64,000 bases of DNA from Thermoguttaceae bacterium. Its GTDB lineage: Bacteria > Planctomycetota > Planctomycetia > Pirellulales > Thermoguttaceae. The stretch is from the NCBI GenBank assembly GCA_045599605.1, contig JAZRWE010000033.1:85687-149686 (forward strand), given 5' to 3'. Each line of letters begins with the position of its first letter. The first letter of the stretch is position 1. The notes below the pieces were generated by a model that was not told where the DNA came from, did no database searches, and was given only the letters and a program-made list of their open reading frames with translations. Shown in pieces: positions 1-49,102 of this stretch. The translations under genes and the position numbers were made by a program.

Positions 1-1730
1 TTGTTGAAGCGTTTGGCGAAGCTGAGACCGTTGAATTGGAAACTGAAACTTCCAACTCCGAATATGAAAGCGTCGACGATTCCGTCGAATTGGATTCGCT
101 GTTTGAAGAAGAGGCCGCCGACGAAGTCGAACTTGACGACGAGCTTGTCGGTTTTGAAGTAGTAGAAGACAAAGTTGAAGACGCCGTCGAACTTGACGAA
201 GTTTTCGAAGACGCCGAAAACGTTGAAAACGAATTAGAAGAACTTGCCGAATTGGACGCCGCTTTTGAGGAAATGGAAGCCAATGAGGAAGCTCTTGAAG
301 AAGAATATGAAGAAGTCGTAGAACTTGACGCTATTTTTGACGAAGTCGCCGACGTTGAAGAAGCTGTTGAAGAAGAAATTGAAGAAGTCGAAGAAGCGAT
401 CGACGACCTTAGCGACCTGATCGACGTTGACGAAGAACCGATCGCGGAAGAAGAAACGGAAGACGTCGCCGCGGCGATCGAAGAAGCTGTTGTTGAAGAA
501 GTCGCCGAGGAACTTGTCGACGAAGTTATTGAAGAACAAGACGACGAGATCGTCGACGAAGTTGCTGAAGAAGCCGACGTTGAAGAGTTGGTCGAGGAAG
601 TTGTTGAGGAACAAGCTGACGAAGTCGTCGACGAATTGGTTGAAGAAGCCGCCGTTGAAGAGTTGGTCGACGAAGTTATTGAAGAGCAAGCGGAAGAAGT
701 TGTTGAAGAACAAGTCGAAGAAGTCGCCGAGACTGTAGTTGAAGAAAGTTCCGACGTTGTCGAGACTGCCGACGTTGCGGAAGTTGAAGTTCAAGAATCG
801 AACGAAGTCAGTTCTATTGAAGATCTTGGTCGCGCCGTTTCGGGCAATCCTGAACCCCCGCTTGCCGAATCTGAGTGGGTCGCGGAAGAAAAGGTCGAGA
901 TCGAGAACGGCGACGTTTCCGAAGTCTCTTATCTTGAAGACCAATACTGGATCGTCATGGCGAACGGCAACGACTTCTTCTGCCAAGTTCTTGACGGCAA
1001 CGTTTGGCGTCAGGTTCCCGCGAGCGAATTTTTCGCGAGCGACAACGCCCAGCGCAGCACGATCGTTTGGGTCCACGGTTTCCAAACCGATATGTCCGGC
1101 GCGGCTCAAAGCGGTTATGTTTTGCGCAACGTCGTCGCGAACGCTCGCGCGGCTTCCGGCTCCGATCGCGCTTTCCGTCTCGTCGTCTGGAAGTGGAATT
1201 CTGAACGCAATACGATGGCGATCCGTTATGACGCGATGCAAAAAGAGCGTCTTGCCGATATCGAAGGCGTCGCGCTTGGCAGATTCGTCGGTATGATCGA
1301 CGGTTCTAACAACGTCTCGTTCATCGGCTTCAGCTTTGGCGCTCGCGTTACCGGTTCCGCTTTGCAGACCCTTGCGACTTGTCAAAGCAAATATATGAGC
1401 AATAAGACCGGCAAGATCTCGTTGGTCCTCGCTAGCGCCGCCTGCGACGCGTGGGCTTTCGACAACGGCGTTTACGCCAAGGGCGCTCGTATCCCGTCTT
1501 ATGTTTTGAACGTATACAACCCCGCCGACCGCGCGTTGCGTTTTTATCCCGCCGTTTCGGAAACGCGCTCCACCGCCCAAGGCGTTATGCCGATCTCCGG
1601 TAACGCGTTCGTCTCCGCGCAAGGTTCTACGTTCAATCTGAACGTTAGCGGTTCTCTTGGCAACGAACATTCGTTCCAACGCGAGATCCAATCGATTCCT
1701 TGCAACGTGATATTCAACGCTCTTTTCTGA
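1..1730 (+). CDS. 5'-partial protein with an extremely acidic E/V/D-rich tandem-repeat N-terminal region and a C-terminal alpha/beta-hydrolase-like domain (GxSxG nucleophile elbow GFSFG)
   Basis: The frame is open from the window edge with no stop upstream of the annotated TTG at 36, and ends at a stop at 1728-1730. Translated residues 1-260 are roughly 20-aa repeats of EELVDEV(I/V)EEQA(D/E)EVVDE. The C-terminal domain contains VWVHGF and GFSFGAR (G-x-S-x-G), which is typical of the serine hydrolase fold. Confidence 0.6.
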   Translation, partial: VEAFGEAETVELETETSNSEYESVDDSVELDSLFEEEAADEVELDDELVGFEVVEDKVEDAVELDEVFEDAENVENELEELAELDAAFEEMEANEEALEEEYEEVVELDAIFDEVADVEEAVEEEIEEVEEAIDDLSDLIDVDEEPIAEEETEDVAAAIEEAVVEEVAEELVDEVIEEQDDEIVDEVAEEADVEELVEEVVEEQADEVVDELVEEAAVEELVDEVIEEQAEEVVEEQVEEVAETVVEESSDVVETADVAEVEVQESNEVSSIEDLGRAVSGNPEPPLAESEWVAEEKVEIENGDVSEVSYLEDQYWIVMANGNDFFCQVLDGNVWRQVPASEFFASDNAQRSTIVWVHGFQTDMSGAAQSGYVLRNVVANARAASGSDRAFRLVVWKWNSERNTMAIRYDAMQKERLADIEGVALGRFVGMIDGSNNVSFIGFSFGARVTGSALQTLATCQSKYMSNKTGKISLVLASAACDAWAFDNGVYAKGARIPSYVLNVYNPADRALRFYPAVSETRSTAQGVMPISGNAFVSAQGSTFNLNVSGSLGNEHSFQREIQSIPCNVIFNALF

Positions 1731-4000: not shown

Positions 4001-4942
4001 TCATTCCATGACGATAGTCGGTTCGCCGTCTTTGAACGCGTCGATCTTATTGACGTCGGCGAGCGCTTGAACGAGCGCTTGCGTGCCCTTGCGTTTTCCG
4101 CCTTGGGCAATGAGCGCGACGTAGAGTTGTTTGACGAGCGCGAGACCGGGTAACGATAGTTGCATAGCTTGCGCGTCGTCGAGCGCGATACCCATATCTT
4201 TAACGAAGTGTTCGACGTAGAAGCCGGGCTTGAAGTCGCCGCGCAACATTCTCGGACCGTAATTGGAGAGCGACCAACTTCCCGCCGCGCCTTGGGATAC
4301 CGCCGCCATCACGTCTTCAAGATCCAAGCCCGCGCGATACGCGTACAGGAGCGCTTCGCAGACGCCGATCATACCGCCGGCAATAAGGATCTGATTCGCC
4401 ATCTTGGTGCGTTGCCCCGCGCCGGAACCGCCCATAAGACGGATGTTGGTTCCAAGGTTTTGGAGGATAGGCGTAACGCGGTCGAGCGTTTCTTTTTCAC
4501 CGCCGACCATGATGGAGAGCGTTCCGTTCTTAGCGCCGACGTCGCCGCCGGAGACGGGCGCGTCGAGAGAACGGAAACCCGCTTTGGTAGCGGCGGCGTC
4601 GATCTTCTGCGCTAGCGTCGGGGAACTGGTCGTCATATCGACGAAGATCTTAGGTCGACCGTCGGCGCAGAGCGGTTCGTCTTTCCACGCGTTAAGGACG
4701 CCGCGTTCGCCGAAGAATATCTCGTCGACGTCGTAAGGATAACCGACGGTTGAGAAAACGACGTCGCAACGTTTCGCGAGTTCGTAAGGATCTTGGCTCC
4801 ATTCGGCGCCGGCGGCGAACAGCTTTTCAGCTTTCTCGCGAGTGCGCGTATAGACGGCGACTTGGTAAGACGCGTCAAGCAATCGCGACGCGCAAGACCC
4901 GCCGATGACGCCGGTCCCGATCCAACCGATTCGAAGACTCAT
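4001..4942 (-). CDS. NAD(P)-dependent beta-hydroxyacid dehydrogenase (3-hydroxyisobutyrate dehydrogenase / 2-hydroxy-3-oxopropionate reductase family)
   Basis: It has an N-terminal Rossmann motif GWIGTGVIGG, the family signature DAPVSGG, and a length (313 aa) typical of MmsB/GarR-type enzymes. Confidence 0.8.
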   Translation of the reverse strand: MSLRIGWIGTGVIGGSCASRLLDASYQVAVYTRTREKAEKLFAAGAEWSQDPYELAKRCDVVFSTVGYPYDVDEIFFGERGVLNAWKDEPLCADGRPKIFVDMTTSSPTLAQKIDAAATKAGFRSLDAPVSGGDVGAKNGTLSIMVGGEKETLDRVTPILQNLGTNIRLMGGSGAGQRTKMANQILIAGGMIGVCEALLYAYRAGLDLEDVMAAVSQGAAGSWSLSNYGPRMLRGDFKPGFYVEHFVKDMGIALDDAQAMQLSLPGLALVKQLYVALIAQGGKRKGTQALVQALADVNKIDAFKDGEPTIVME

Positions 4943-5203: not shown

Positions 5204-5288
5204 GCGGGCGTGGCGGAATTGGTAGACGCGTCAGGTTGAGGGCCTGATGGGAGCTAATCCCGTGGAGGTTCGAGTCCTCTCGCCCGCA
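5204..5288 (+). tRNA. tRNA-Leu (anticodon GAG), class II with a long variable arm
   Basis: A 7-bp acceptor stem pairs GCGGGCG with CGCCCGC. The anticodon stem-loop is tCAGG-TTGAGGG-CCTGa with GAG at positions 34-36. The T-arm is GGAGG-TTCGAGT-CCTCT. Total length is about 85 nt. Confidence 0.85.
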
Positions 5289-5293
5289 CTGAG

Positions 5294-5329
5294 AAACCCG
5301 GTAACTTCGGTTGCCGGGTTTTTCTGTTT
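5294..5329 (+). terminator. rho-independent terminator after the tRNA (AACCCGGTAAC-TTCG-GTTGCCGGGTT followed by TTTTCTGTTTC)
   Basis: A perfect 11-bp stem with a tetraloop is followed by a T-rich run. Confidence 0.6.
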
Positions 5330-5633: not shown

Positions 5634-5972
5634 ATGAGAATAACAATGGTAGAAAGAAATAGAGACACGAACAGATCTTCGCAAGCGCAAGATCGCCGCC
5701 AATTTTGTCGCGTTTGTTTTGCGGCGTTGGCTAGCGCGTTAGTATTGCCCGGTTGCAAAACGCTGAACGAAGATCCTAAGAACGACCGATTCTGGTTCCC
5801 GACGATCGCGCCGCCGTCAAAGAAAGAGCGCGAGTTACGAGGGCGTTACGCCGAAGGGGGCGATCCTTACGTCGACGCCAACGTCGGACCGAAATCGTTT
5901 AACACGCGTCCGAAGGGGTGTACCGACCAACGCTCGCGAACTTATTACGACGATGAGATCGGCGGTTATTAA
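5634..5972 (+). CDS. small putative lipoprotein (lipobox LPGC)
   Basis: It has a signal-peptide-like hydrophobic stretch ALASALVLPGC followed by Cys. No homology was recognised. Confidence 0.4.
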   Translation: MRITMVERNRDTNRSSQAQDRRQFCRVCFAALASALVLPGCKTLNEDPKNDRFWFPTIAPPSKKERELRGRYAEGGDPYVDANVGPKSFNTRPKGCTDQRSRTYYDDEIGGY

Positions 5973-6030
5973 GTCGCGGAAATAAAGCGTTTCGCGAGCA
6001 CGCTGAGACGCCGGTTATATAATAATGAGA

Positions 6031-6060
6031 AACGTCGCTTAATGGCGGCGTTTTTTTATT
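6031..6060 (+). terminator. putative rho-independent terminator (ACGTCGC...GCGGCGT stem with a G-U pair, then TTTTTTTATTT)
   Basis: The hairpin and T-run were read from the sequence, downstream of the small lipoprotein gene. Confidence 0.4.
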
Positions 6061-6273
6061 TAATCGAAAAAGCTTTCTTTTTTGGAAAAATAGGTAAAAA
6101 GTTTTAAATTCTCTTTTCTTTTGCATTAAAAAATGATATAATCGCGACGACTATCGCATTTATACGTAGTCAATATTAATAGTAGTCGCCAAGGGAAGGC
6201 GACTGCGAACCGTTGAGACTCCTACGGTCCCCCCTGCACTTTGAAGTAATAAACTATGAAGGAGACGGACGTT

Positions 6274-7575
6274 ATGAAACGCCTGGCTGGAACGACTTAT
6301 AATAAATCCGGTTTTACGTTGTTGGAATTGCTTATCGTATTGGCGATCTTGATCGTCATTATTGGTATTCTTGGAACGACGATCTGGGGTTCCTATAAAA
6401 AAGCGTTGATCCGCGCGGCTACGGTCCAAGTTCAGACGACGCTCCAAAACGCTTGCGAAGACTTCCATATCGAATTTCATCGTTATCCGAACCAACAAGA
6501 AGGACTTTACATTCTTGCCGACATGGATAATCCGGAAGCCCCCGCGATGAATATGATGGACGCCAATAATATGAATAATATGAACGGCGGCATGAACAAT
6601 ATGGGCATGGGCAACATGGGCATGACCGGCGATATGAACGGCAACATGGGCATGGGTAACATGGGCGCCGGCAACATGGGCATGGCCGGCGACATGAACG
6701 GCAACATGGGCATGGGCAACATGGGTATGGCCGGCGACATGAACGGCAACATGGGCATGGGCAACATGGGCATGGGCAATATGGGCATGACCGGCGACAT
6801 GAACGGTAACATGGGCATGGGCAACATGGGCATGGGGAACACCGGTATGGGCGACATGACCGGCATGAATAACAACATGACGGGCGTTTCTATGACCGGC
6901 GACATGAACAACATGAATAACATGAACAATATGCCCGGCATGAACAACATGAACAACATGAACGGCACGGCTAATTCGACTATGCCGATGAATGGTTCCA
7001 ACACGATCTACAAGCGTCCTAAGATCAGCGTCCCGCTCATCAAAGAAAAAGACCTCATCGACCCGTGGAACAATCCTTACAAGTACGAATACCCGACGAC
7101 CAAGGGTGACGGCAAGAAGCCCGCGATCTGGTCTTGCGGTCCTGACGGTATCGACGACAACGGCGACGGCGACGACGTCATCAACTGGGACGCCGAAGAT
7201 ACTACCGGTATGATGAACGCTCAGCGTCAACAAATGCAACAAAACAACATGAACAACATGAATAACATGACCGGCGACATGAACAACATGAACGGCATGA
7301 TGCAACCGAACATGACCGGCGACATGAATAACATGAACGGCATGATGCAACCGAACATGACCGGCGACATGAACAACATGAACGGCATGATGCAACCGAA
7401 CATGACCGGCGACATGAATAACATGAACGGCATGATGCAACCGAACAACATGAACGGCGGTATGGGCGGTATGAACGGCGGCATGATGCAACCGAATAAC
7501 ATGAACGGCGGCATGGGTGGTATGAACGGCGGCATGAACGGCATGGGCGGCGGTATGACCGGCGGCATGTTCTGA
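6274..7575 (+). CDS. GspG-like major pseudopilin (prepilin-type N-terminal cleavage/methylation domain) with about 250 aa of Met/Asn/Gly-rich repeat insertions
   Basis: The N-terminus reads MKRLAGTTYNKSGFTLLELLIVLAIL, the classic prepilin leader plus hydrophobic helix. The GspG core elements QQEGLY and DPWNNPYKYEYP...GKKPAIWSCGPDGIDDNGDGDDVINWD are present. A perfect SD (AAGGAG, 6259-6264) precedes the ATG at 6274. The ORF track's ATG at 6256 lies inside that SD. Confidence 0.75.
   Translation: MKRLAGTTYNKSGFTLLELLIVLAILIVIIGILGTTIWGSYKKALIRAATVQVQTTLQNACEDFHIEFHRYPNQQEGLYILADMDNPEAPAMNMMDANNMNNMNGGMNNMGMGNMGMTGDMNGNMGMGNMGAGNMGMAGDMNGNMGMGNMGMAGDMNGNMGMGNMGMGNMGMTGDMNGNMGMGNMGMGNTGMGDMTGMNNNMTGVSMTGDMNNMNNMNNMPGMNNMNNMNGTANSTMPMNGSNTIYKRPKISVPLIKEKDLIDPWNNPYKYEYPTTKGDGKKPAIWSCGPDGIDDNGDGDDVINWDAEDTTGMMNAQRQQMQQNNMNNMNNMTGDMNNMNGMMQPNMTGDMNNMNGMMQPNMTGDMNNMNGMMQPNMTGDMNNMNGMMQPNNMNGGMGGMNGGMMQPNNMNGGMGGMNGGMNGMGGGMTGGMF
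6590..7446 (+). repeat. in-frame tandem DNA repeats inside the GspG-like gene: about 42-bp units (GDMNGNMGMGNMGM) across 6590-6960, and four near-perfect 45-bp units (MTGDMNNMNGMMQPN) at 7267-7446
   Basis: Direct reading shows ATGACCGGCGACATGAA(C/T)AACATGAACGGCATGATGCAACCGAAC repeated four times head-to-tail at 7267-7446. Upstream, GGCAACATGGGCATG...GGCGACATGAACGGCAACATGGGCATGGGCAACATGGGCATG recurs several times. Confidence 0.85.
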
Positions 7576-7758
7576 TCGTGAGCTCAGGTTGTTGTTTTGA
7601 TTTGACGCCGCTTCGAGAGCGAGGCGGCGCGTAAAGATATGACGCGATACGGTCGTTTGGCCGAATCGCGCCTTTTTCTGTTTCTAAGGCGAGCGCGACG
7701 GAGCCCCCTTTTGCCGATCGCGCGACATTCGTAGATATAGCTTCACGGCGAGGTTGGA

Positions 7759-9867
7759 ATGAGAAGAACCGCGTTCACGCTGCTTGAACTCTTGTTAGTT
7801 TTGGCGATCATCATCGCGATCGCCGGAATGGGAGTTATGGGGTACCAGCGTCAATACGCTCGTTCTCAATTCAAGAGCGGCGTGATACAGTTGCAGGTCG
7901 ATCTGACTTGCGCGCGCGTCTTGGCCATGCAGTCGGGCAACGCTTACGTCTTTCGCTATGTTCCCGGTTCTAACGTCTATGAGATCGCGCCTCTGAAAAC
8001 TCTGCAAGAAACTCTCTATCGCGTTAACGGCGATCTTGCCCAAGCGGACGGTTACGACTCTCTCGGAGGTTCGCTTACGACTTCCGTAGGTCCGACGCCT
8101 TCGCTCGGCGTTTCCGCGTTAGGCGCGAATCCTCTCGGTATGGATCTTCTAGGCGCGAACTCGTTGAACATGGGCGCGGGGACGACTTCTATCGGATTCG
8201 ATACCTCGGCGCTCGGCGCGTTGACCGGAACCGACCCCGCCGCCGCGATGATGGGGGCGATGATGGGCGTCAATATGGGATCGGGCGCCGCGACCGCGTA
8301 TACCGACGACCTTTTCTCGCCGGAGAATATTGCCGCCGATATGGCGGAGGCGATGAAAGCCAACGAACGCGACGCGCGCTTGGGCGCAACTAACGTCGAT
8401 CTGACCGGCGGTCTTGGCGGGAGTTTGAATTCGATAGCAGGCGTGCCCGCGCTTGCCTCTAATAATATGACGCCCGGACTTGGCGGTTCCGCGCTTGGCG
8501 GGACGGCGCTTGGCGGCGCCGCGATGATGAATGGCGCCGCGACTTCGGGCGTTGCGAGTCCTTACGGTTACGCGACCGATTACTCCGGTATGGGAGGCGA
8601 ATTTGGACTTGATGCGACGGGTATGACGACCGGACAAGTTCCGTCGGCGATACAGACGCTGCGCGATCTCAACGGTACCGAGAAATTACTTGCCGACGAA
8701 CACACGCTAATGTCGCGAGTCAATCTCGACGGTCTTATCATTCGTAAACAGATCGCCGGCGACGTCGTTTTCACTTTCATGCGCGTCTCCGATTCGACCT
8801 CGTCGCCGTTGCGCGCTCGACGTCCCGGCGCAGCGAAAAACGATTCGGCTAGTCCGATCACAGGCGCGAGCGAAGGCGAAGACCTCGGTTCCGCGCTCGG
8901 CGGATCGTTGCGCAGTATCCCAGTCGCTTCTAATAACGACGCCTTGGGCGGCGCGTTGAGCGCGATACCGGGAACGGATCCGACCGGTATGACCGACGCC
9001 GAGTCTTATGAGGAAGATCCGCTTGCGACGAGCATGTGGTCGGAACCGCTCGTGTTCTTTCCCAACGGTAAGACGTCGAGCGCCGTTCTCGGCTTCGCGA
9101 GTATGAACGAGTACTCGTTCTATTCCGAGATCTCGTTGCGCGGTATGACCGGCGTTTCGCGTATCTCCGCGATCTCCGCGGTTCCGCCGGAATACGACCC
9201 CGCGTCGACCGCGTTGACGCAAGAACAGCTCTTCCGACTCTATAATCCCGGCGTCGCGTATTCAGGAAACGACCCCGCAAACGCAAGCGCGACAGGCGGC
9301 GCGCTAAACTCGACGACTCCAAACGCCGCGCTTGGCGTGGACGCGCCCGACGTCGCGACGACGTCCGGATCGCTCGATACGCTTGGCGGACTTGGCGCGA
9401 GCGACTTGTCCGCTCCTTCTGTGAACTATGGTCGAGCGGGCGGAGGCGGTTACGGCTCTACGGAACGTCGCTCGGGCTACAGCTTCAACGCGACCGGCGG
9501 TCGCAACGGCGGCGCGCAAGGCATGCCCGACGCCGGCGGACTTGGCGTCGCGAACGGCGGTATGGACCAAGGCGCGTTAGGCGGAATGAACAACGCGAAC
9601 GGCGCTCTTGGCGGCATGAACGATCCGACAGGCGGAATGAACAACGCGACGGCCGGAGGCGGACTTGGCGGTTTGGGCGGCGCTAATAACGGCGCGCTTG
9701 GCGGTAACGACGATCCGTTTGGAGCAGTCGACGCGGCTATGGGCGGTCTTGGAAACGACGGCGGCGGTCTTGGCGGTAACGCGAACAACGCCGGCGGCGC
9801 GCTTGGCGGCGGCGAAAACGATCGCAACGACAGAAACGAACAAGATATTATGGGAGGCGGACTGTGA
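7759..9867 (+). CDS. GspH/FimT-like minor pseudopilin (prepilin N-terminus) with a long G/A/S/L/M/N-rich low-complexity C-terminal extension
   Basis: The N-terminus is MRRTAFTLLELLLVLAIIIAIAG. A GspH-like segment (GVIQLQVDLTCARVLAMQSGNAYVF) follows. The 702-aa protein is dominated by LGG/ALGG repeats, and an SD (GAGGT) precedes the ATG. Confidence 0.6.
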   Translation: MRRTAFTLLELLLVLAIIIAIAGMGVMGYQRQYARSQFKSGVIQLQVDLTCARVLAMQSGNAYVFRYVPGSNVYEIAPLKTLQETLYRVNGDLAQADGYDSLGGSLTTSVGPTPSLGVSALGANPLGMDLLGANSLNMGAGTTSIGFDTSALGALTGTDPAAAMMGAMMGVNMGSGAATAYTDDLFSPENIAADMAEAMKANERDARLGATNVDLTGGLGGSLNSIAGVPALASNNMTPGLGGSALGGTALGGAAMMNGAATSGVASPYGYATDYSGMGGEFGLDATGMTTGQVPSAIQTLRDLNGTEKLLADEHTLMSRVNLDGLIIRKQIAGDVVFTFMRVSDSTSSPLRARRPGAAKNDSASPITGASEGEDLGSALGGSLRSIPVASNNDALGGALSAIPGTDPTGMTDAESYEEDPLATSMWSEPLVFFPNGKTSSAVLGFASMNEYSFYSEISLRGMTGVSRISAISAVPPEYDPASTALTQEQLFRLYNPGVAYSGNDPANASATGGALNSTTPNAALGVDAPDVATTSGSLDTLGGLGASDLSAPSVNYGRAGGGGYGSTERRSGYSFNATGGRNGGAQGMPDAGGLGVANGGMDQGALGGMNNANGALGGMNDPTGGMNNATAGGGLGGLGGANNGALGGNDDPFGAVDAAMGGLGNDGGGLGGNANNAGGALGGGENDRNDRNEQDIMGGGL

Positions 9868-10652
9868 TCGTCAAACGAAGTTCCGGACTCTTGCGCCGCG
9901 AGCGCGAACGCGTTGCGGCGACACGTCGCGCGTTTACGTTGTTGGAGATCCTTGTCGTGCTCGCCGTCCTCGGCATGGGTATGGGGCTCATCACGCAGAT
10001 GACGCTCGTCGCGTCGCGTCACTCCGAACGCGTTGAAGAAGACACGTTCGTTCAACTTGCTTGCGAGAACATGATGAGTTCGATCCTTGCGGGGAACATG
10101 ACCGCGACGGTCGGCGTCTCTACTCCGATCCCCGACGCGCCAAATTGGGAAACGACGATCGAATTGCTCGACGGCCCGATCGAGAAACTTGTCGCGATAC
10201 GCATCACCGCGCAGCGATACGCGATCGAAGAGTACCCGTCGCAAGACGGTTCCGGGTTCCCTATTAGCGTGCGCGAACCGGAAGACGGTCGACGCTTCGT
10301 GATCAAGGAATACGCGCGTCGCGCCGACATAAAAACGCGCGTCGTCCAGACGAACGCTCAAGGCGAAATGACGGCGACCGACGGGACCGGCGAAACGTTC
10401 GCAAACGATCTCTTGGGTCAACAAAACGCGATGGGCGGCGGACTCGGTATGGACGCGCTCGACCCGTTTGCGGCGGTAGATCGCGGCATGGCGGCGACTA
10501 ACGGCGGTAATAATAACGTCGGCGGCGGTCTAGGCGGCGGAGTCGGCGGTCTAGGCGGCATGACCGGCGGCTTTGGCGGCGATAATATCAACGTCGGCGG
10601 CGGTCTTGGCGGCGGTAATCTCGATCGGGGATTCGGAAACCTTGGTTTCTGA
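9864..10652 (+). CDS. GspI-like minor pseudopilin (prepilin N-terminus), GTG start overlapping the upstream stop
   Basis: The sequence contains RRAFTLLEILVVLAVLGMG. A GTGA start/stop overlap with the previous gene is preceded by a GGGAGG SD. The C-terminus is G-rich GGGLGG repeats. Confidence 0.5.
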   Translation: MIVKRSSGLLRRERERVAATRRAFTLLEILVVLAVLGMGMGLITQMTLVASRHSERVEEDTFVQLACENMMSSILAGNMTATVGVSTPIPDAPNWETTIELLDGPIEKLVAIRITAQRYAIEEYPSQDGSGFPISVREPEDGRRFVIKEYARRADIKTRVVQTNAQGEMTATDGTGETFANDLLGQQNAMGGGLGMDALDPFAAVDRGMAATNGGNNNVGGGLGGGVGGLGGMTGGFGGDNINVGGGLGGGNLDRGFGNLGF

Positions 10653-10693
10653 TCGTAACACAAAAATGAAGCGCGAGTTTCGCGTTATACGAT

Positions 10694-13261
10694 ATGAAAA
10701 AGCAAGAAGACGATACGATGAGAACGAAATTGCGAGTCGAACGCGGCGCGGATCCAACGCGTCGTGGGTTTACTTTGCTTGAAATTCTCCTCGTCTTGGT
10801 GTTGATAGTCGTTCTACTTGGCGGTCTTGCTTCGTTAATACGCGTATTCACCAATAGTTATTTCTCAAATGAACGTCGCGTCGGTAGAGCGCAACTTGCG
10901 CGTTCGATATCGCAGATGCTTGAAGACGATCTTGGCGCCGCGATACAGGATCCAATACAAGCGGTCGCCGAAGACGCTAACCGCCAATTTATCCGCCACT
11001 TCGGACTTCGCGGGGACGCGCGGTCGTTACAGATCGACGTCGTGCAACCTAGCCTGTTTGCGAAGACGGCCACCGTCGACGAGAATATCCGCGTTCAATC
11101 CGGCGGGGATAAATCCGCAGCGTCGCGACAAGCGCCGGAATTGAAAACGATCTTCTACGAATTTGTTCCGATCAACGCAAGCGAAGTTATTGAAGGACAA
11201 CAAAATACGACAAACGGAACCGTCGCCGCGCAAGGCGAGGATCTTGGTTCTTCGCTGACCGGCTCGCTTTCCTCGACTTCGCCCGACTCGGCGTTGTCTA
11301 ACGTTAACGGTGACGTTCTCGCCGACTCGTCTTCTTTCCGCGATCCAACGCTTCCGCTCGCGCAGAAATACGGCTTGTCGCGTCGCGAACTCGATTTTGA
11401 GACGCCGGAAGAAGATACGGAAGAAACGGACCAACTAAGCGCGTACGATCTTGGCGCCTCTATCGATCCTGAGACGGGGGCGGCGACCTCGACGTTGAGC
11501 GGTTCGCTGACGTCCGCGCCGACGACTCAGAACTCTACGCTGACGTCGACCGATCCTAGCGTCAACGCCGCGCTCGGTATCGTCGACGCGACGCAATACG
11601 TTTACAAAGAACCGCTTACCGCCGTACAGATCGCGATGGATTCAGACGACGGCACGACGTGGGCGCCGGAAGTGCTCGATTGCCGTTTCAGCTACTTTGA
11701 CGGCGAAAAATGGCGCGATTCGTGGGATAGTATTCAAGATAAAGGACTTCCGATCGCGATCAAGGTCGAATTGAAGATGGCGCCGCTCGACGACGTCGAT
11801 CTCTATCGCAGCGCGCCGATCTTCGCGATGTTGCCCGTAGCGCCCGACCTTGAAACGCTTTCAAAACTAGCGACCGCGGGAGACCAACTTGTCGATACCG
11901 ACGAAGTTAACGTAAGTCGTTTGGCAGGCTCGCTTACTCGTACCGCGAAAGAAAAAGGCGAACCCGTCGACGTGTTCAATTCGTATCGGCCTCTTGCCGC
12001 TATTCGCGCCGCGATGGAAGGCGTGGTCACCAATCGCGACGGCGCTTCGACGTTCGCGGAAGTCGCCGCGTCCGCTATGCTGTTGCGTGCCAATGAGTTA
12101 GAAACGCAAAACGCGAGTTCGCCCGGCGATATGGAAGGCGGTCTGGCGTTCAGTAGCGGACTTGGCGGTTCGCTCAACGGTTCTTCTACGTCGACGGACG
12201 GCGCGTTAGGGGGCGGCTTGACTTCCGGAACCGCTAATACCGCCAACGTCAATACGGGCGACCCGAGTCTGGACCCGTCGATCGCGATCGTGCAGGAAAT
12301 GATGGCGAACGGCGCCGTATTTAACGAGGCGGGTATCTGCGTCGACTTCTCTAACGACGGTTCTTATGTAACGCTCGAACAGATCGCCGAGGAGATCGGC
12401 GTGACGGAACCCAATGTTTACGAAGTGATCGTCTATCTCCCGACGACTCCGCTCAGCCGCGCGACGACGGTCCAACGCCGCGTCGCGACGACGGTGCGCC
12501 AAGGCAATGTCTCGCAACGACGTAATACGAACGCCGCCGGCGGAAATAGTCGCGATCGTCGCGCGCAAGGTCAGAATCCTTACGCCACCGGTAGAGCGCG
12601 ACAATCGCAACCTCGTGAAAGAACGGAACGCACAAGAAACGAGCGCACGGCGCAAGATCGTCAACGCGCGGATCGGCAGACGGCGGAACGCGGACGCGCC
12701 GATCGTCAAGCGGTCGACCGCGGCGGCCCCGTCGAGCGACAAGCAAATAATCGTCAAGTTAACGAACGCCAAGGAGGCGAAGCGCGAACCGCAAATACGC
12801 GCGAAACGCGAGAACGCGTCGGACGCAACGGCGGTTGGACCGACGATAGCCCCAATACGGTCAACTACGGGAATCGTAACGCGAATAATAGAGCGCAAGT
12901 AGGAGATACTAACGGCGTCGGCGGTTTCGGTAACGCCGCCGCGGATCTCGGCGGTCTTGGCGATCGTAACGCGGTAACGCCGTCTCTTGGTCAAGGGGGC
13001 GGGCTCGCGGGCGGACTTGCCGGCAACGGCGGCGCCACGCAGATTCAGACCGATCCGTTTGCTATCGTCGACCAACAGATGAACGCCGCCTCGTCTGCGC
13101 CGTTTGCGTCGCAAAACGCTGATATGGATATTTTTGGCGGAATGACTACGCCGGGGTTGATCGAGACGCCTAACGGAACGAACACGGTCGCTTCTCCGAC
13201 CGCGCCCGCCGCGCCGCAACGCCAAGGTCAGCAACAAACGTGGATCCGCGGTAAGAAATAA
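10694..13261 (+). CDS. GspJ-like minor pseudopilin (prepilin N-terminus) with large S/T/G-rich and Arg/Gln/Glu-rich low-complexity regions
   Basis: The sequence contains RRGFTLLEILLVLVLIVVLLGG followed by a GspJ-like helix region. The protein is 855 aa, far larger than canonical GspJ. An alternative start is at 10718. Confidence 0.5.
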   Translation: MKKQEDDTMRTKLRVERGADPTRRGFTLLEILLVLVLIVVLLGGLASLIRVFTNSYFSNERRVGRAQLARSISQMLEDDLGAAIQDPIQAVAEDANRQFIRHFGLRGDARSLQIDVVQPSLFAKTATVDENIRVQSGGDKSAASRQAPELKTIFYEFVPINASEVIEGQQNTTNGTVAAQGEDLGSSLTGSLSSTSPDSALSNVNGDVLADSSSFRDPTLPLAQKYGLSRRELDFETPEEDTEETDQLSAYDLGASIDPETGAATSTLSGSLTSAPTTQNSTLTSTDPSVNAALGIVDATQYVYKEPLTAVQIAMDSDDGTTWAPEVLDCRFSYFDGEKWRDSWDSIQDKGLPIAIKVELKMAPLDDVDLYRSAPIFAMLPVAPDLETLSKLATAGDQLVDTDEVNVSRLAGSLTRTAKEKGEPVDVFNSYRPLAAIRAAMEGVVTNRDGASTFAEVAASAMLLRANELETQNASSPGDMEGGLAFSSGLGGSLNGSSTSTDGALGGGLTSGTANTANVNTGDPSLDPSIAIVQEMMANGAVFNEAGICVDFSNDGSYVTLEQIAEEIGVTEPNVYEVIVYLPTTPLSRATTVQRRVATTVRQGNVSQRRNTNAAGGNSRDRRAQGQNPYATGRARQSQPRERTERTRNERTAQDRQRADRQTAERGRADRQAVDRGGPVERQANNRQVNERQGGEARTANTRETRERVGRNGGWTDDSPNTVNYGNRNANNRAQVGDTNGVGGFGNAAADLGGLGDRNAVTPSLGQGGGLAGGLAGNGGATQIQTDPFAIVDQQMNAASSAPFASQNADMDIFGGMTTPGLIETPNGTNTVASPTAPAAPQRQGQQQTWIRGKK

Positions 13262-13307: not shown

Positions 13308-15224
13308 ATGGAAAACGACGCTTTAAATACGCAGACTGCCGCGAACGACAACGGCGCCGACTACGACGCCGCGGAACGCGAAGCGAAACGCGTGCGCCGC
13401 GCGATATATAATCTCTTGATATTCGTAGCGTTAGGCGTCGGTTTTGGTAAGATCGCCTCCGTCGATTCCGTTTACGATCGCGCTATTCAGAATTTCCGCT
13501 TGCAACAGATCCCGAAGACGTTGGAAGCTAAGGATAAAGAATTGCAAGACAAAGGCGTCGAACCGGAACGTCGACAAGCGGAATTAGAACGCGTCTACAA
13601 CTCTTTACTAGCCGACGCAAATAAAGCGCGTCCAACGCTTTGCGCTAACGACCGTAGTCGTTGGGCGACGATCCGCGCGCTCGTTGAACCGGATATGCGC
13701 GTCTATCGCTACACGCCTGTGTTCTCCGACGAACAAAAAGCCGATCGTATCTCGGAGCTGTCGATGCGAGAACCGAACAGCGCGAAGAAGATACGCTTTA
13801 AGTTCTACGATAACGAGATCTTACGAAATTGCGCGTCCGATTGCTCCGAACAATTTTCCAAAGAACACGCCGTCGCGAAGCGTTACACGCGAAAGCTAGT
13901 TCCTTACGCCGTCGACAAAGTCTGGGAAACGCCGGGTTGGGATTCTATCGACGTTGTCAAACATGGACTTAAAGACGAAGTTTACGTTCCTGAGAACCCG
14001 TCGTCAGGTTATATCTATTCCAGCAAACCGACCCTATTGCCGACGCTGATGGCGGCCCCGTATTGGGTCTTGTATCATTGCTGCGGATTGTCGCTCTCCA
14101 AAAATCCGTTTGAAGGCGTGAAGATACTACTTGTTTTCTATAACCTTATTCCGTTGGGACTTGCGTTCCTTTGCCTGACGTCGTTAATCGACTCTGTTGG
14201 GAAGACGACGTGGGGGCGGTTGTTCGCGGTCGCAACGCTGCTGTTCGCGTCTTTCGCGTTGACCTTTGTAGCGACGTTAAATAACCATATACCGGGTTTT
14301 GTGGCGATATCGATCTCGCTTTGGGCGGGGATGAAGATCTTACGCGACGGCAAAGATTCATGGATATACTACGCGTTAGCCGGGTTCTTTGGTGCGTTTG
14401 CCGTCGTCTGCGAGTTGCCCGCGCTGGCGTTTGCAGGAACGTTGTTCTTGTGCCTCGTTATAAGTAAAGCCAAGAAAACGCTTGGCGTTTCCGTCCCGTT
14501 TGGACTCGTCGTCGCCGTCGCGTTTGTTTCGACCGACATGATCGCGCATCAATCGCTCAAACCGGCGTATTCTCATAAACGCGATCATATGGCGTTGGCG
14601 GAACAAGCGAAAGCCGCTACGGATGAGACGGCGAAGAACGCCGACGGCGCGCCGTTATTTGAATTCGATCCTAACGACTGGTATTACTACGTTTATTATC
14701 CCGCGGGGAAGACTCGCGAGATGAAGAACGCGCGTATTAGCCACTGGGCTTATCGCACCGGTATCGATCGCGGGGAACCGTCGATCGCGCGTTACGCGTT
14801 CCATTCGACGATCGGCAGTCGCGGGGTATTCTCGCTTGCTCCGGTCTGGATATTCAGTATCTTTGGCGCGATCGCGTTCGCGTTGACAAAAGGAAAGACC
14901 GATCCCGGAAAACGCGCGCTCGGCGTAATGACGCTGGTGTTGACGGTCGTATTTTTTGCGTTCTTCCTGACGCGCGATCAAGGGGACCGCAATTACGGCG
15001 GGGTATGTTGTTACCCGCGTTGGTTCTTCCCGTTGATACCGTTGTTTGCGCCCGCGCTTACGCCGGCCGCCGACGCGTTGTCGAAACGAGCGTTCGGACG
15101 ATGGATCGCGTATTTGGCGTTATTTATCGCGGCGGCTTCCGCGTCCTATCCGACGTGGTCGCCGTGGGTCTCGCCGTGGTTCTATCAATTCGCCGTCGAT
15201 TGGAATTGGATGGAGCCGTATTGA
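13308..15224 (+). CDS. polytopic inner-membrane protein of unknown function (about 230-aa soluble N-terminal domain plus about 10 predicted TM helices)
   Basis: This is a long ORF with many hydrophobic helices. The ATG at 13308 has an SD (GAGGA) 5 nt upstream, whereas the ORF-track start at 13296 is GTG. It lies 35 bp downstream of the pseudopilin genes on the same strand. No recognisable family motif was found. Confidence 0.6.
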   Translation: MENDALNTQTAANDNGADYDAAEREAKRVRRAIYNLLIFVALGVGFGKIASVDSVYDRAIQNFRLQQIPKTLEAKDKELQDKGVEPERRQAELERVYNSLLADANKARPTLCANDRSRWATIRALVEPDMRVYRYTPVFSDEQKADRISELSMREPNSAKKIRFKFYDNEILRNCASDCSEQFSKEHAVAKRYTRKLVPYAVDKVWETPGWDSIDVVKHGLKDEVYVPENPSSGYIYSSKPTLLPTLMAAPYWVLYHCCGLSLSKNPFEGVKILLVFYNLIPLGLAFLCLTSLIDSVGKTTWGRLFAVATLLFASFALTFVATLNNHIPGFVAISISLWAGMKILRDGKDSWIYYALAGFFGAFAVVCELPALAFAGTLFLCLVISKAKKTLGVSVPFGLVVAVAFVSTDMIAHQSLKPAYSHKRDHMALAEQAKAATDETAKNADGAPLFEFDPNDWYYYVYYPAGKTREMKNARISHWAYRTGIDRGEPSIARYAFHSTIGSRGVFSLAPVWIFSIFGAIAFALTKGKTDPGKRALGVMTLVLTVVFFAFFLTRDQGDRNYGGVCCYPRWFFPLIPLFAPALTPAADALSKRAFGRWIAYLALFIAAASASYPTWSPWVSPWFYQFAVDWNWMEPY

Positions 15225-15246
15225 TTTCTTAAAATAATGGTATAAT
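15215..15246 (+). promoter_or_regulatory. possible extended -10 promoter (TGGTATAAT at 15238-15246) upstream of smpB
   Basis: A TGnTATAAT element sits 78 bp upstream of the smpB ATG. Only a weak -35 (TTGATT with a short spacer) is present. Confidence 0.3.
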
Positions 15247-15323
15247 AAAAGAAGCAGACGGCGCGACGCCGTACCGGGTCGAGCGATCCGAGACAATAGA
15301 TACAAATATAGAAGAAAGTCCCC

Positions 15324-15815
15324 ATGGCGGATAAAAATAAGAATAAGAAGAAGGAAGACGACGGTATCGAGCGCGTCGTCAGCGAGAATCGTAAAGCGCG
15401 TCACGATTACGATATTCTCGAAACGCTCGAATGCGGTATCGCGCTTGTCGGTAGCGAGGTCAAGAGCCTTCGCAGCGGCACGGTCTCGTTGTCGGAATCC
15501 TATGCGCGCGTTCGTGATAACGAAGTATTTTGGGTCAATAGCGACATTCCGGAATACATCGACGCCAATCGTTTCAATCATAAGCGTAAGCGCGATCGTA
15601 AGTTGTTGATGCATAAACGCGAAGTGCAGCGTTTCGCGAAACGCGCTATGGAAAAAGGGTTGACGCTCGTGCCGTTGAAACTCTATTTCCGCGGCGGACG
15701 CGCGAAGTTGCTCCTTGGACTCTGTAAAGGCAAGCAAGATTACGATAAGCGTCAAACGCTGAAAAAACAAGACGTTGAACGCGGTCTTCGCCAGATGAAG
15801 ATGTTCCGTAGATGA
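15324..15815 (+). CDS. smpB: SsrA-binding protein
   Basis: It carries conserved SmpB motifs NRKARHDYDIL, GIALVGSEVKSLR and FWV. The C-terminal tail is basic. Confidence 0.9.
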   Translation: MADKNKNKKKEDDGIERVVSENRKARHDYDILETLECGIALVGSEVKSLRSGTVSLSESYARVRDNEVFWVNSDIPEYIDANRFNHKRKRDRKLLMHKREVQRFAKRAMEKGLTLVPLKLYFRGGRAKLLLGLCKGKQDYDKRQTLKKQDVERGLRQMKMFRR

Positions 15816-24438: not shown

Positions 24439-25446
24439 ATGAAAGATCGTTTTGGTTTTACTTTGGTAGAACTTTTAGTCGTTATCGCGATAATCGGAAT
24501 TCTGATCGGCTTGCTGTTGCCCGCCGTTCAAGCCGCTCGCGAAGCCGCTAGGAGGATGCAATGCCAAAACAACGTTAAGCAGTGGTGCTTAGCGTTGACG
24601 AATTACGCAGACGCGACGCTCGCGTTTCCGACGTTCACGAGCTGGGGAAACAGCGTAAGCGCGGGAACGACCGGACTCAATACCGGTTTTTCGATCCATG
24701 CGCGCATCTTGCCGTACATCGAGCAAGGTTCGTTTATGCTCGGGATAGATTTCGGCGACTACGACAAGTATCGCCTCTGGGCCAATCAGTCCGCGATCAA
24801 TTCCGCGCTCTTTGAGAAATGCGATTTCCCTTGCGCGACGCTGTGGTGTCCTAGCGAAGACCAGGAAAAAAAGGCGTTGCAACCGCGCAACGACAACTTG
24901 TACTGCAATAACGTGAACTACGTGTTCTGTTCCGGAACAAGCGTAGGGCGCGCGAACAACCTTGACGGGCTCATGAACGACGGGACGTTTCGTTACGCGC
25001 AGACGACGTTTGCGACGCTCGTCGACGGGACCTCGAACACGATGGTCGTCTCGGAAGCGCGTATGCAGCTTGCCGCGTTTTCCGACGCCGAGAAGACTAT
25101 GGATCGCATGAGCGTTTTAGGCGAGGGGACTTGCGAGTCGTATATCGACCCCGACTTGACGGCGATGCGTTCTCAAGCGTCGTTGACGCACCGCGGTTCG
25201 CCGTGGCTTGCGGGCAGACATTACGCGACCGGGTATTCCGCGTACTCCGCGCCTAACGCGAAAGTTCCGGGGATATGGCTGCGCGGATCGGAATTGCTGT
25301 TCGAGGGCGCGGCGTCGAATCATCCGGGCATAGTCGTCGTGGGATACGCCGACGGCAGCGCGCATATCGTCTCCGAGACGATCGCGCTAGACGTTTGGCG
25401 CGCCGCCGCGACCGCCGCGGGGGGAGAGACCGTCTCCGCGCTGTGA
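24439..25446 (+). CDS. DUF1559 (H-X9-DG) domain protein with prepilin-type N-terminal cleavage/methylation motif
   Basis: The N-terminus is MKDRFGFTLVELLVVIAIIGILIGLLLPAVQAAREAARRMQCQNN, which matches the stereotyped start of the large Planctomycete DUF1559 family. An HxxxxxxxxxDG-like element lies near the C-terminus (YADGSAH). Confidence 0.85.
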   Translation: MKDRFGFTLVELLVVIAIIGILIGLLLPAVQAAREAARRMQCQNNVKQWCLALTNYADATLAFPTFTSWGNSVSAGTTGLNTGFSIHARILPYIEQGSFMLGIDFGDYDKYRLWANQSAINSALFEKCDFPCATLWCPSEDQEKKALQPRNDNLYCNNVNYVFCSGTSVGRANNLDGLMNDGTFRYAQTTFATLVDGTSNTMVVSEARMQLAAFSDAEKTMDRMSVLGEGTCESYIDPDLTAMRSQASLTHRGSPWLAGRHYATGYSAYSAPNAKVPGIWLRGSELLFEGAASNHPGIVVVGYADGSAHIVSETIALDVWRAAATAAGGETVSAL

Positions 25447-47117: not shown

Positions 47118-47247
47118 CCCAACCCCTTAAAAAAAAGATACTGTTAGTTATAATATAGGGACGCTCTGTCGCGAGTACGCGCGCGTTAGCGAGGCGACGG
47201 AGAACGCTGTACGTTAAAAGAATCACTCAGGGTGGAGGAAAGCCCAA

Positions 47248-49011: not shown

Positions 49012-49102
49012 CGCAACATATTCTCGTATAAGATTTTTCCGCGCGGACGCGCCTTGCGTCCGCGTTCCATATATAGCATAAAGCCAATAAAAAACGAATA
49101 AA

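Follow-up and report, generated by a model that had tools for sequence, protein, structure and literature searches.

A Thermoguttaceae pseudopilin operon enlarged by low-complexity sequence and its probable relation to type II secretion-type systems

Four co-oriented genes with prepilin-type N-termini, encoding proteins of 439, 702, 262 and 855 aa, occupy positions 6256-13261 of a stretch of DNA from a Thermoguttaceae bacterium (GCA_045599605.1, contig JAZRWE010000033.1, positions 85,687 to 149,686, forward strand), the whole 64,000 nt of which are called the window here. The locus raises the question of whether these genes belong to a type II secretion system (T2SS) or, as the original prediction had it, to a heavily decorated pseudopilus or fibre rather than a standard T2SS. 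The sequences compared, given by L numbers where genomes have to be told apart, all come from metagenome-assembled genomes. The features on which the argument depends are as follows.

6027..6056, + strand: terminator-like hairpin of the upstream lipoprotein-like gene, a 13-bp stem followed by a T-run
6274..7575, + strand: gspG-like major pseudopilin gene (Pfam T2SSG); the reading frame opens at 6256 (6256-7575, 439 aa)
6544..7005, + strand: Met/Asn/Gly-rich low-complexity insertion in the alpha-beta loop of G, residues about 97-250 of the reading frame
7195..7572, + strand: Met/Asn/Gly/Gln-rich C-terminal tail of G, about residues 314-439, Phe last
7759..9867, + strand: gspH-like minor pseudopilin gene, 702 aa, A/F cleavage site, weak N-terminal GspH/ComGD matches
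9864..10652, + strand: gspI-like minor pseudopilin gene, 262 aa, A/F cleavage site, GTG start, TIGR01707 at 7e-4
10694..13261, + strand: gspJ-like minor pseudopilin gene, 855 aa, G/F cleavage site
13308..15224, + strand: gene for a polytopic membrane protein resembling GT-C-fold glycosyltransferases, 642 aa; the reading frame opens at GTG 13296

The layout supports a single G-H-I-J pseudopilin operon. Its 5' boundary is the terminator-like hairpin, followed by AT-rich intergenic DNA (6057-6255), and the likelier start of G is the ATG at 6274, with an AAGGAG box at 6259-6264 and a resulting leader of 13 aa. Both the predicted run of four consecutive prepilin-type genes in this order, all on the + strand, and their union in one operon were confirmed: the GTGA overlap is real, with the GTG start of I at 9864-9866, the TGA stop of H at 9865-9867 and GGGAGG just ahead, the remaining gaps being 183 nt between G and H, 41 nt between I and J and about 46 nt between J and the next gene. 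The H-I start-stop overlap is conserved.

The N-terminus is of prepilin type in each of the four proteins: a basic leader of few residues ends in Gly or Ala (-1), Phe stands at +1 and Glu at +5, and hydrophobic residues follow. This motif is conserved across their homologues. The cleavage contexts are KSG/FTLLELL in G (predicted G/F site at 6310-6315), RTA/FTLLELL in H, RRA/FTLLEIL in I and RRG/FTLLEIL in J, so that all four have a plausible peptidase site. Pfam N_methyl (PF07963) or TIGR02532 is matched above cut-off by G, I and J, and weakly, below cut-off, by H. The Ala found at -1 in 68 of 79 H homologues counts against reading the genes as a T2SS-type module, prepilin peptidases being reported in the Pseudomonas pilin mutagenesis literature to cleave Ala at this position less well than Gly.

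Judged by its sequence, G keeps the core of GspG. It matches Pfam T2SSG (PF08334) at 46.1 bits against a cut-off of 21 (5.8e-12) in two stretches split by an insertion, profile positions 57-108 aligning to residues 258-311 beyond the low-complexity block, and its C-terminal core is DPWNNPYKYEYPT...GPDGIDDNGDGDDVINW; the match to the stricter TIGR01710 equivalog (65.4 against 88.85; 5.3e-18) does not reach the threshold. The insertion is made up of in-frame tandem repeats of 15-105 nt, every period found by Tandem Repeats Finder in G being a multiple of 3 and the 45- and 105-nt units matching at 91-97%, and the tail of 45-nt repeats with 97% matches. With 20% Met, 18% Asn and 18% Gly, G is the most expanded of the four proteins and is poor in Ser and Thr.

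The identity of H and I, by comparison, is putative and rests mainly on synteny. Neither reaches a threshold of the GspH or GspI family models on its own, and their matches are confined to the N-terminal helix region, which counts against the module reading: H matches the GspH family (PF12019, TIGR01708) in the N-terminal residues 6-63 only, at 22 bits against 80, I matches TIGR01707 at 20 bits against 44.35, and PF12019 (GspH) is matched by 1 of 22 H homologues (0.0095). In the profile search proposed as a check G passes T2SSG, and H and I score below threshold. By tblastn, however, window H is linked to the H-position proteins of L035 and L039, which match Pfam GspH over the full domain at 20.9 bits against a cut-off of 21, and window I matches the I-position genes of other planctomycete operons; the I-position protein of L037 matches T2SSI (PF02501) at 0.011. 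The core of H comprises residues 1-95, about 300-365 and about 425-500, the remainder being Gly/Ala/Ser/Leu-rich low-complexity sequence, and that of I residues 22-180, followed by a Gly-rich tail with DPFAAVD at residue 200 and Phe last; an AlphaFold2 model of I was of low confidence and too poor for use. J keeps the GspJ fold and belongs to GspJ (PF11612, TIGR01711) by fold or family model, the confident core of its predicted model comprising residues 28-81, 105-118, 149-158, 321-397 and 561-581; a long Arg/Glu/Gln-rich helix (residues 642-673) and a conserved C-terminus, QQTWIRGKK, are also present.

The extra mass of these proteins is low-complexity sequence in loops and C-terminal tails. 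The low-entropy fraction of the protein amounts to 0.82 in G, 0.56 in H, 0.50 in I and 0.49 in J, whereas MutY, AlaRS and the membrane protein have 0.06-0.19. The four are 3.0, 4.2, 2.1 and 4.4 times as long as GspG/H/I/J of E. coli K-12 (145, 169, 125 and 195 aa), and the two- to six-fold inflation originally claimed therefore stands as an enlargement of 2.1- to 4.4-fold, without its upper end. The low-complexity expansion itself is real, as had been claimed, since at least five genomes have uninterrupted reading frames and every repeat period is divisible by three; besides the window, L001, L003/4, L011 and L012 carry the decorated operon intact, at 45-65% identity in the cores. The low-complexity regions align less well than the cores, at lower identity and with far more gaps, yet J keeps a stable length (818-855 aa) despite this rapid change, and short motifs are conserved inside the fast-evolving sequence. 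H, whose composition is 18% Gly, 13% Ala and 10% Leu, has five LxGxL motifs in its low-complexity part, where DPFGAVD also occurs at residue 652, and LxGxL is about 26-fold enriched among 73 H homologues. The low-complexity sequence of J is predicted to be disordered, pLDDT being below 50 for 497 of its 855 residues, and no extra Pfam domain was found in the four decorated proteins except a compositional DUF1720 match in G.

Decoration of this kind was predicted to be lineage-specific, which holds for H and J, whose expansion was seen only within the gut Thermoguttaceae clade of the window, and fails for G. Of 38 full-length GspG representatives in Planctomycetia, 25 are expanded, Met/Gly/Pro-rich and with the insertion-plus-tail layout of window G, and the expanded representatives checked already bear the NCBI name GspG. 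MDR1385209.1, MCL2346981.1 and MGL6227184.1 ('type II secretion system protein GspG'), for instance, have an insertion before the DPW core and a long tail; expanded Planctomycetia GspG is Gly/Pro/Met/Gln/Asn-rich and often ends in Phe or Met, whereas window G is a Met/Asn-rich extreme (20% Met) with strongly expanded H and J alongside. The four-gene set is an unusual, undescribed pseudopilin variant, in which repetitive sequence is set on an otherwise normal pilin fold.

The absence of secretin, ATPase, platform and prepilin peptidase genes from the window was confirmed by two approaches. The Secretin, T2SSE, T2SSF and Peptidase_A24 profiles had no match in window ORFs of at least 150 aa, and tblastn of a relative's GspE and GspF and of E. 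coli GspC/D/K/L/M/O against the 64-kb window returned nothing; none of gspD, E, F, K, L, M and O was found within the 64 kb, and this absence, including that of a K-like cap, counts against the module reading. The relatives are differently arranged. Contiguous gspE-gspF-G-H-I-J-K-L-M operons are present in L032, L034, L035, L037, L039, L040 and L041, the K of L035 matching T2SSK_1st (5.5e-16) and L040 having a secretin upstream of the operon, and the cores of window G, H, I and J match the same-position genes of such operons by tblastn. In the rumen relatives L008 and L013-L018 the order is gspE, an EF-hand gene, gspF and then G-H-I-J, with a mature G of 434-468 aa (Asn/Gly-rich), H of about 245 aa, I of about 208 aa and J of about 455 aa. 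Encoding of gspE and gspF with G is seen in L008, L013-L018, L032 and L034-L041 and not in the window; an orphan gspF occurs in the gut Thermoguttaceae genomes L020-L031, L036, L042 and L049, with no link found to genomes that carry the window's operon. Because the rumen relatives keep gspE and gspF beside G-H-I-J, the window operon appears to be a detached T2SS-type module, not a separate invention, and the opposition to a standard T2SS was not borne out, the operon of these relatives lying directly downstream of gspE and gspF. The window therefore has a T2SS-type module that has been translocated, with the motor presumably encoded elsewhere.

Set against canonical T2SS GspG-H-I-J(-K) (E. coli Gsp, Vibrio Eps, Pseudomonas Xcp), the operon is alike in gene order, prepilin N-termini, Glu+5 and the GspG sequence core including its C-terminal Asp/Gly-rich loop, as well as, in the relatives, in following gspE and gspF and preceding K, L and M. 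It differs in proteins 2.1-4.4 times longer with a low-complexity share of about half to about 80%, in that K, L, M, D, E, F and O are not nearby, in the mostly Ala at -1 of H and in that H and I fall below family thresholds.

The locus is probably the pseudopilin module of a planctomycete T2SS-type machine, one of the type IV filament machines, with GspG as the major and GspH, GspI and GspJ as minor subunits, decorated by disordered loops and tails. In the gut Thermoguttaceae clade a rearrangement would have split this module from gspE, gspF, gspK, gspL and gspM, placing it upstream of a GT-C-type membrane protein gene and smpB. A prepilin peptidase encoded elsewhere would cut before Phe+1, a GspE/GspF motor likewise encoded elsewhere would pull the subunits out of the inner membrane, and H, I and J would prime the G filament. 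The disordered loops and tails would point outwards and thus make the filament a bottle-brush; in place of a folded surface, a flexible Met/Asn/Gly layer would do the work on G and a layer of LxGxL motifs on H and J. Each G subunit would bring about 300 disordered residues, too much bulk for a secretin channel, and a periplasmic (endo)pilus is therefore favoured over a long surface fibre; such a brush may act as a soft plunger or a ligand-capturing matrix. The modular type IV pilins PilB and PilC of S. sanguinis, minor tip-located pilins with a folded graft (vWA, lectin), offer a parallel (Raynaud et al. 2021, PMC8179133), in that extra, filament-displayed mass is grafted onto a pilin module. 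In the window, however, no additional folded domain was recognisable by signature or structure, and every subunit, the major one among them, carries the disordered graft, which has no domain match and would therefore coat the whole filament and not the tip alone.

The 642-aa polytopic protein encoded after J, described originally as of unknown function, weakly matches GT-C glycosyltransferases and may resemble them. Its scores lie below cut-off for PMT_2 (24.3 bits against 26.1; 4e-5) and NF047440 (33.6 against 200; 1.9e-8); among 29 homologues PMT_2 is matched by six, GT87 by two and Glyco_transf_22 by one, the glycosyltransferase matches being to GT-C families only, and no PDB sequence match was found. 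The family has invariant NDRSRW and YSSKP motifs, which presumably resemble those of ArnT. The gene adjoins J in the window, L001, L003/4, L011 and L012 and not in L005 or L008, an adjacency that is clade-specific; in the gut clade it is probably co-transcribed with the operon, and its part in the function of the system is uncertain.

This neighbour suggests another explanation, which we consider rather unlikely: that the GT-C enzyme acts on the low-complexity regions and the filament is a glycoprotein fibre, H and J being O-glycosylated at Ser and Thr of their periplasmic loops and tails from a lipid-linked sugar donor, possibly at sites in or beside LxGSL(T/S) motifs. The glycosyltransferases TfpW or PilO of P. 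aeruginosa and PglL of Neisseria modify pilins and are encoded by neighbouring genes, and the window would be comparable in its polytopic glycosyltransferase-like gene directly 3' of pilin genes with Ser/Thr-rich exposed regions. GT-C superfamily enzymes act on the periplasmic face, which fits pseudopilin topology; the gene starts about 46 nt past J in the window and comes immediately after J in all five decorated genomes seen, and Ser/Thr/Gly-rich expansions of H and J were seen only where it adjoins. The likeness, however, is one of layout, and the one-clade adjacency amounts to a single evolutionary event. Where no pseudopilin genes adjoin, the enzyme gene and smpB remain together, as in L005, where the pair (45% identity) has no pseudopilin gene and GspG (P0267) lies elsewhere on the same contig; in the Q4G69 genome the GT-C and J homologues have distant locus tags (02665 and 14250). 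Moreover, GT-C homologues are widespread in Planctomycetes (981 matches), the family assignment is below threshold, and G, the most expanded protein, is Ser/Thr-poor.

Less probable still is that the operon serves, instead of a T2SS pseudopilus, an extracellular fibre of the type IV pilus kind, primed by a counterpart of the FimU-PilV-PilW set and covered by an adhesive or polysaccharide-capturing disordered coat. This would accord with the lack of a K cap gene, with the lack of a visible secretin beside most planctomycete operons and with the fibres at crateriform structures and the polysaccharide uptake reported for Planctomycetes, which no literature found links to these genes. G is nevertheless a GspG-type subunit by Pfam and TIGRFAM, with relatives named GspG by NCBI; the ancestral operons include GspK, genes at the GspL and GspM positions (by position) and, in L040, the upstream secretin; and no PilT-like retraction ATPase was seen in the loci examined. 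That the four proteins stay unpolymerised, as periplasmic disordered proteins held in the inner membrane by the pilin helix or as decaying remnants of a broken T2SS operon, is very unlikely. Detachment from E, F, K, L and M and the fast evolution of the low-complexity regions would fit this, as would a disordered bulk that may hinder filament packing, but the cores are conserved (45-65% identity), the frames are uninterrupted in five or more genomes, none of the four proteins has lost Glu+5 or the cleavage motif, and translational coupling, J length and short motifs have been kept as well, all of which argues for purifying selection on assembly-relevant features.

The four pseudopilin genes G, H, I and J (gspG-, gspH-, gspI- and gspJ-like) share the forward strand with two upstream features, a tRNA gene and a small lipoprotein-like gene:

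5204-5289 (+): tRNA-Leu(GAG), upstream of the operon by about 1 kb
5634-5972 (+): small lipoprotein-like ORF of 112 aa ('...GCKTLNEDPKNDRFWFPT...'), directly 5' of G
6256-7575 (+): G, ORF of 439 aa
7759-9867 (+): H, ORF of 702 aa
9864-10652 (+): I, ORF of 262 aa
10694-13261 (+): J, ORF of 855 aa

All four pseudopilins carry a class III signal motif after a short basic leader, namely KSG/FTLLELL in G, RTA/FTLLELL in H, RRA/FTLLEIL in I and RRG/FTLLEIL in J, with Glu as the +5 residue throughout; Pfam N_methyl or TIGR02532 matches G, I and J above threshold and H weakly. The start-stop overlap of H and I, GTGA at 9864-9867, was found as described and is preceded by a GGGAGG box, and with these ORFs, motifs and box the original prediction of a four-gene prepilin-type operon is confirmed. 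ATG 6274 is the more likely start of G, judging by an AAGGAG box ahead of it and a resulting 13-residue leader as in orthologues. The gap between G and H (7576-7758, 183 nt) holds a GC-rich hairpin at about 7606-7628 without a clear T-run, which may be an attenuator setting the ratio of major to minor subunits. Further upstream, a strong terminator-like hairpin (5291-5324) directly follows tRNA-Leu(GAG), and the small lipoprotein-like gene has its own terminator at 6027-6056. This ORF, for which no family match was found, is kept upstream of G in every decorated genome, that is, every genome whose pseudopilins carry low-complexity expansions (L001 2592-2945, L004 2943-3293, L011 7950-8264; L numbers denote related planctomycete loci).

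The identity of G is established by a match to Pfam T2SSG (46.1 bits, cut-off 21) that is split into two stretches, profile positions 57-108 corresponding to G residues 258-311; in the TIGR01710 alignment, positions 1-74 correspond to residues 18-92. Because the alignments are interrupted there, a low-complexity block of about 155 residues can be placed in the alpha-beta loop. The C-terminal tail is another such block, about 125 residues long, and the core retains the typical DPW...Y.YEYP...GPDG.DDNGDGDD..NW. The analysis shows that G has kept the GspG sequence core and J the GspJ fold. For H and I, profile searches against PDB sequences gave matches confined to the N-terminal pilin helix, and hhalign comparison of H, I and J alignments with single E. 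coli K-12 GspH, GspI and GspJ sequences aligned the N-terminus alone. The original interpretation is largely right, with corrections needed. A conserved segment of J (residues 535-600) had raised the idea of a J-K fusion, which was rejected: the hhalign probability against E. coli GspK was 1.8%, J has no T2SSK match, the planctomycete K of locus L035 has no tblastn match in the window, and residues 561-581 of the model (pLDDT about 92) were taken as part of the core. Residues 642-673 of J (window 12617-12712), rich in Arg, Glu and Gln, are predicted to form one long isolated helix (pLDDT 63-85), likened here to a charged single alpha-helix spacer.

The enlargement of all four subunits stands, although its extent, originally put at two- to sixfold, is 2.1-4.4 when measured against the E. 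coli K-12 proteins: GspG, H, I and J of that strain (145, 169, 125 and 195 aa) are exceeded 3.0, 4.2, 2.1 and 4.4 times in length. The low-entropy fraction reaches 0.82 in G, 0.56 in H, 0.50 in I and 0.49 in J, against 0.06-0.19 in control proteins of the window, and G consists of 20% Met, 18% Asn and 18% Gly. H has about 350 residues of low-complexity sequence in a central block and about 200 in its tail, I has such sequence in the tail, and J in three loops and in a tail about 260 residues long; the analysis shows this placement, and where modelled, in J, the extra sequence is predicted to be disordered. G contains in-frame tandem DNA repeats whose periods range from 15 to 105 nt, with 91-97% matches for units of 45 and 105 nt. 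The low-complexity sequence is coding and no artefact of assembly or annotation: at least five independent assemblies have intact ORFs, each repeat period is a multiple of three, and the start-stop coupling is conserved. Runs of N, marking scaffold gaps, lie inside the G repeats of L001 (about 4400-4500) and L003/L004 (about 4030-4140); the repeats break short-read assembly, and their copy numbers are therefore uncertain.

Core identity among H proteins is 45-64%, and that of their low-complexity sequence 31-36% with 24-48% gaps; as judged from such alignments, the low-complexity sequence is evolving faster than the cores. The low-complexity regions of J contain just 6-9% gaps, and its total length is constant at 818-855 aa. 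Short motifs recur within this sequence: LxGxL (in forms such as LGGSL, LTGSL and LAGSL) is present in five copies in H and six in J, and in 73 H homologues it is about 26-fold more frequent than in shuffles (2.86 against 0.11 per protein). DPFAxVD is common to the tails of H, I and J and is present already in the short tails of the rumen clade. The C-termini are characteristic as well, H proteins usually ending in GG(S/A)L (window 9844-9864), I proteins and G in Phe (10629-10649 and 7555-7572, respectively) and J homologues in QxW(L/I)RG(K/R)(K/R) (13232-13258).

Homologues of the membrane protein encoded downstream of J place the window among gut and rumen Thermoguttaceae. Orthologous operons with the same flanks were found at L001/L002, L003/L004, L011 (on a 3.2-Mb contig of GCA_050949645.1) and L012, the common upstream flank comprising Rce1-like, CDP-alcohol phosphatidyltransferase, dehydrogenase and small lipoprotein genes and the downstream flank a GT-C glycosyltransferase-like gene, smpB and mutY; within this clade H measures 523-702, I 210-262 and J 818-855 aa. 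Further loci were reached by a J-core search (L008/L009) and by a scan with the L008 GspF that yielded 43 loci; the window cores were then run by tblastn against all loci. Rumen Thermoguttaceae (L008, L013-L018) have the order gspE (opposite strand), EF-hand gene, gspF, G, H, I, J, followed by a fucose-isomerase-like gene; their mature G has 434-468 aa, with 26-31% Asn and 23-24% Gly, and their H, I and J about 245, 208 and 455 aa. A contiguous gspE-gspF-G-H-I-J-K-L-M operon occurs at L032, L034, L035, L037, L039, L040 and L041, of which L039 is itself a Thermoguttaceae MAG, and there the sizes are near-canonical (G 146-192, H about 211-228, I about 145-155, J 382-434 aa). Matches in these operons are those of the L035 K (T2SSK_1st, 5.5e-16), the H of L035 and L039 (Pfam GspH, 20.9 bits over the full domain, cut-off 21) and the L037 I (T2SSI, weak), and a secretin-like one upstream in L040. 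A lone gspF of about 61% identity is present in many gut Thermoguttaceae MAGs (L020-L031, L036, L042, L049).

The absence of other type II secretion system (T2SS) components nearby, claimed from the start, was borne out: a Pfam scan of every plausible window ORF of at least 150 aa found no secretin, T2SSE, T2SSF or prepilin peptidase, and tblastn with a relative's GspE and GspF and E. coli GspC, D, K, L, M and O gave no match in the window. The comparison of loci shows that the window's module descends from a gspE-F-G-H-I-J-K-L-M operon, and we read the gut Thermoguttaceae as having fragmented an ancestral planctomycete T2SS-type operon, the window holding a detached G-H-I-J module. Across Planctomycetes, gspE and gspF are accompanied by a conserved gene for a 412-aa EF-hand protein (L008 4358-5596; L032, L035, L037, L040, L041), which separates the two in the rumen clade and elsewhere lies upstream of, and divergent from, gspE; it is absent from the window.

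Expansion of the major subunit extends further. The 76-residue C-terminal core of G, searched against 1.84 billion representatives, gave 460 matches, the best 150 of which include 38 full-length proteins with prepilin motif and DPW core. Of these 38, 25 have more than 250 mature residues and owe the extra length to an insertion in the loop together with a tail: F1 and DPW are separated by a median of 217 residues in expanded and 90 in short forms, and the median from DPW to the end is 150 against 49. Gly, Pro, Met, Gln and Asn abound in the 25 expanded proteins, 18 of which have a C-terminal Phe or Met; those checked come from Thermoguttaceae, Planctomycetaceae and Planctomycetia MAGs and bear the NCBI name "type II secretion system protein GspG". 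With 25 of the 38 full-length representatives expanded, enlargement of G is a class-wide feature; H and J enlarged to 500-855 aa were seen only in the gut clade of the window.

Pseudopilins are normally compact, with 125-200 aa, and models of the T2SS take the filament to be slim enough for the secretin vestibule. Such a picture does not accommodate a major pseudopilin predicted to be about three-quarters disordered, together with decorated H, I and J, and the mismatch suggests that Planctomycetia use a T2SS-type machine differently. In the literature, searches on planctomycete pseudopilins, on pilins that are disordered or Met-rich and on a Thermoguttaceae T2SS turned up nothing relevant beyond the paper on the "modular pilin", the nearest published concept, in which the grafts are folded (PMC8179133); the present proteins extend that idea to disordered grafts. 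Since expanded GspG is common in the class and no description was found, the phenomenon is probably under-appreciated rather than a single-genome curiosity. What appears to be new, from sequences that all derive from uncultured gut MAGs, is a set of T2SS-type pseudopilins with disordered low-complexity decoration on all subunits, whose function we infer.

In the proposed mechanism, a prepilin peptidase encoded elsewhere would process G, H, I and J, and GspE and GspF, likewise encoded elsewhere, would assemble the subunits into a G filament primed by H, I and J, the disordered segments pointing outward as a brush. We favour a periplasmic pseudopilus, its coat soft and possibly cohesive, over a long surface fibre, because each G would bring about 300 disordered residues, too much bulk for a secretin channel. 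The Met/Gly/Asn/Asp repeats are reminiscent of the Met-rich inserts by which CueO and CopA bind Cu(I), and of the Gly/Met elastomer abductin, both likenesses serving as leads only. The membrane protein downstream of J (13308-15224, +) scores 24.3 bits against PMT_2 (cut-off 26.1), has a sub-threshold match to a putative Leptospira glycosyltransferase family and no sequence relative in the PDB, and the glycosyltransferase matches among its 29 homologues are all GT-C (PMT_2 six times, GT87 twice, Alg9-like once). Glycosylation of the Ser/Thr-rich pseudopilin loops by this enzyme, although topologically plausible, seems unlikely, as it is argued from a single evolutionary association: J adjoins the GT-C gene in every decorated genome seen. 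A dedicated pilin glycosyltransferase was downgraded as an explanation, the adjacency not being conserved outside the clade; in L005 the GT-C gene and smpB stand together without pseudopilins, the GspG of that locus (P0267) lying elsewhere on the same 177,820-bp contig.

A bolder and distinctly improbable extension of the soft-coat pseudopilus makes the disordered regions the working part of the machine, stickers and spacers producing a cohesive, gel-like or elastomeric periplasmic brush. Hydrophobic stickers, namely Met in the window's operon, Phe or Trp in the rumen clade and the LxGxL motif of H and J, would alternate with spacers of Asn, Gly and Gln; secretion or the uptake of macromolecules could employ the brush as a selective plug or a soft piston, and the adjacent GT-C enzyme may also O-glycosylate H and J. 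Alternatively, the 20%-Met coat of G might bind Cu(I), as do Met-rich inserts of periplasmic copper proteins. If a working brush were real, this type IV filament would be the first with its function located in disordered sequence of the major subunit.

The adjacency of the GT-C gene and smpB (window 13308-15815; L005 10001-12362) is kept down to 45% identity, with pseudopilin genes present or absent. Other genes of the window are ordinary planctomycete housekeeping and transport genes, including those for DUF1559 and DUF1598 proteins. A DUF1559 prepilin-type protein (24439-25446, +) is followed by a 534-aa protein (25497-27101, +) with weak EF-hand or terpene-cyclase-like matches; the same pair adjoins gspE in rumen relatives (L008 1-1467; L013, L016-L018) and may be left over from the ancestral neighbourhood or represent another substrate of the same machine. 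Long ORFs without a Pfam family lie at 36-1730 (+)/234-1691 (-), 43110-46013 (+) and 47227-49353 (-), some of them overlapping on opposite strands so that the coding strand is ambiguous. The 1120-aa protein encoded at 51905-55267 (-) has a weak cytochrome c motif in addition to a hydrazine-synthase-alpha middle domain and a 3-keto-disaccharide hydrolase domain.
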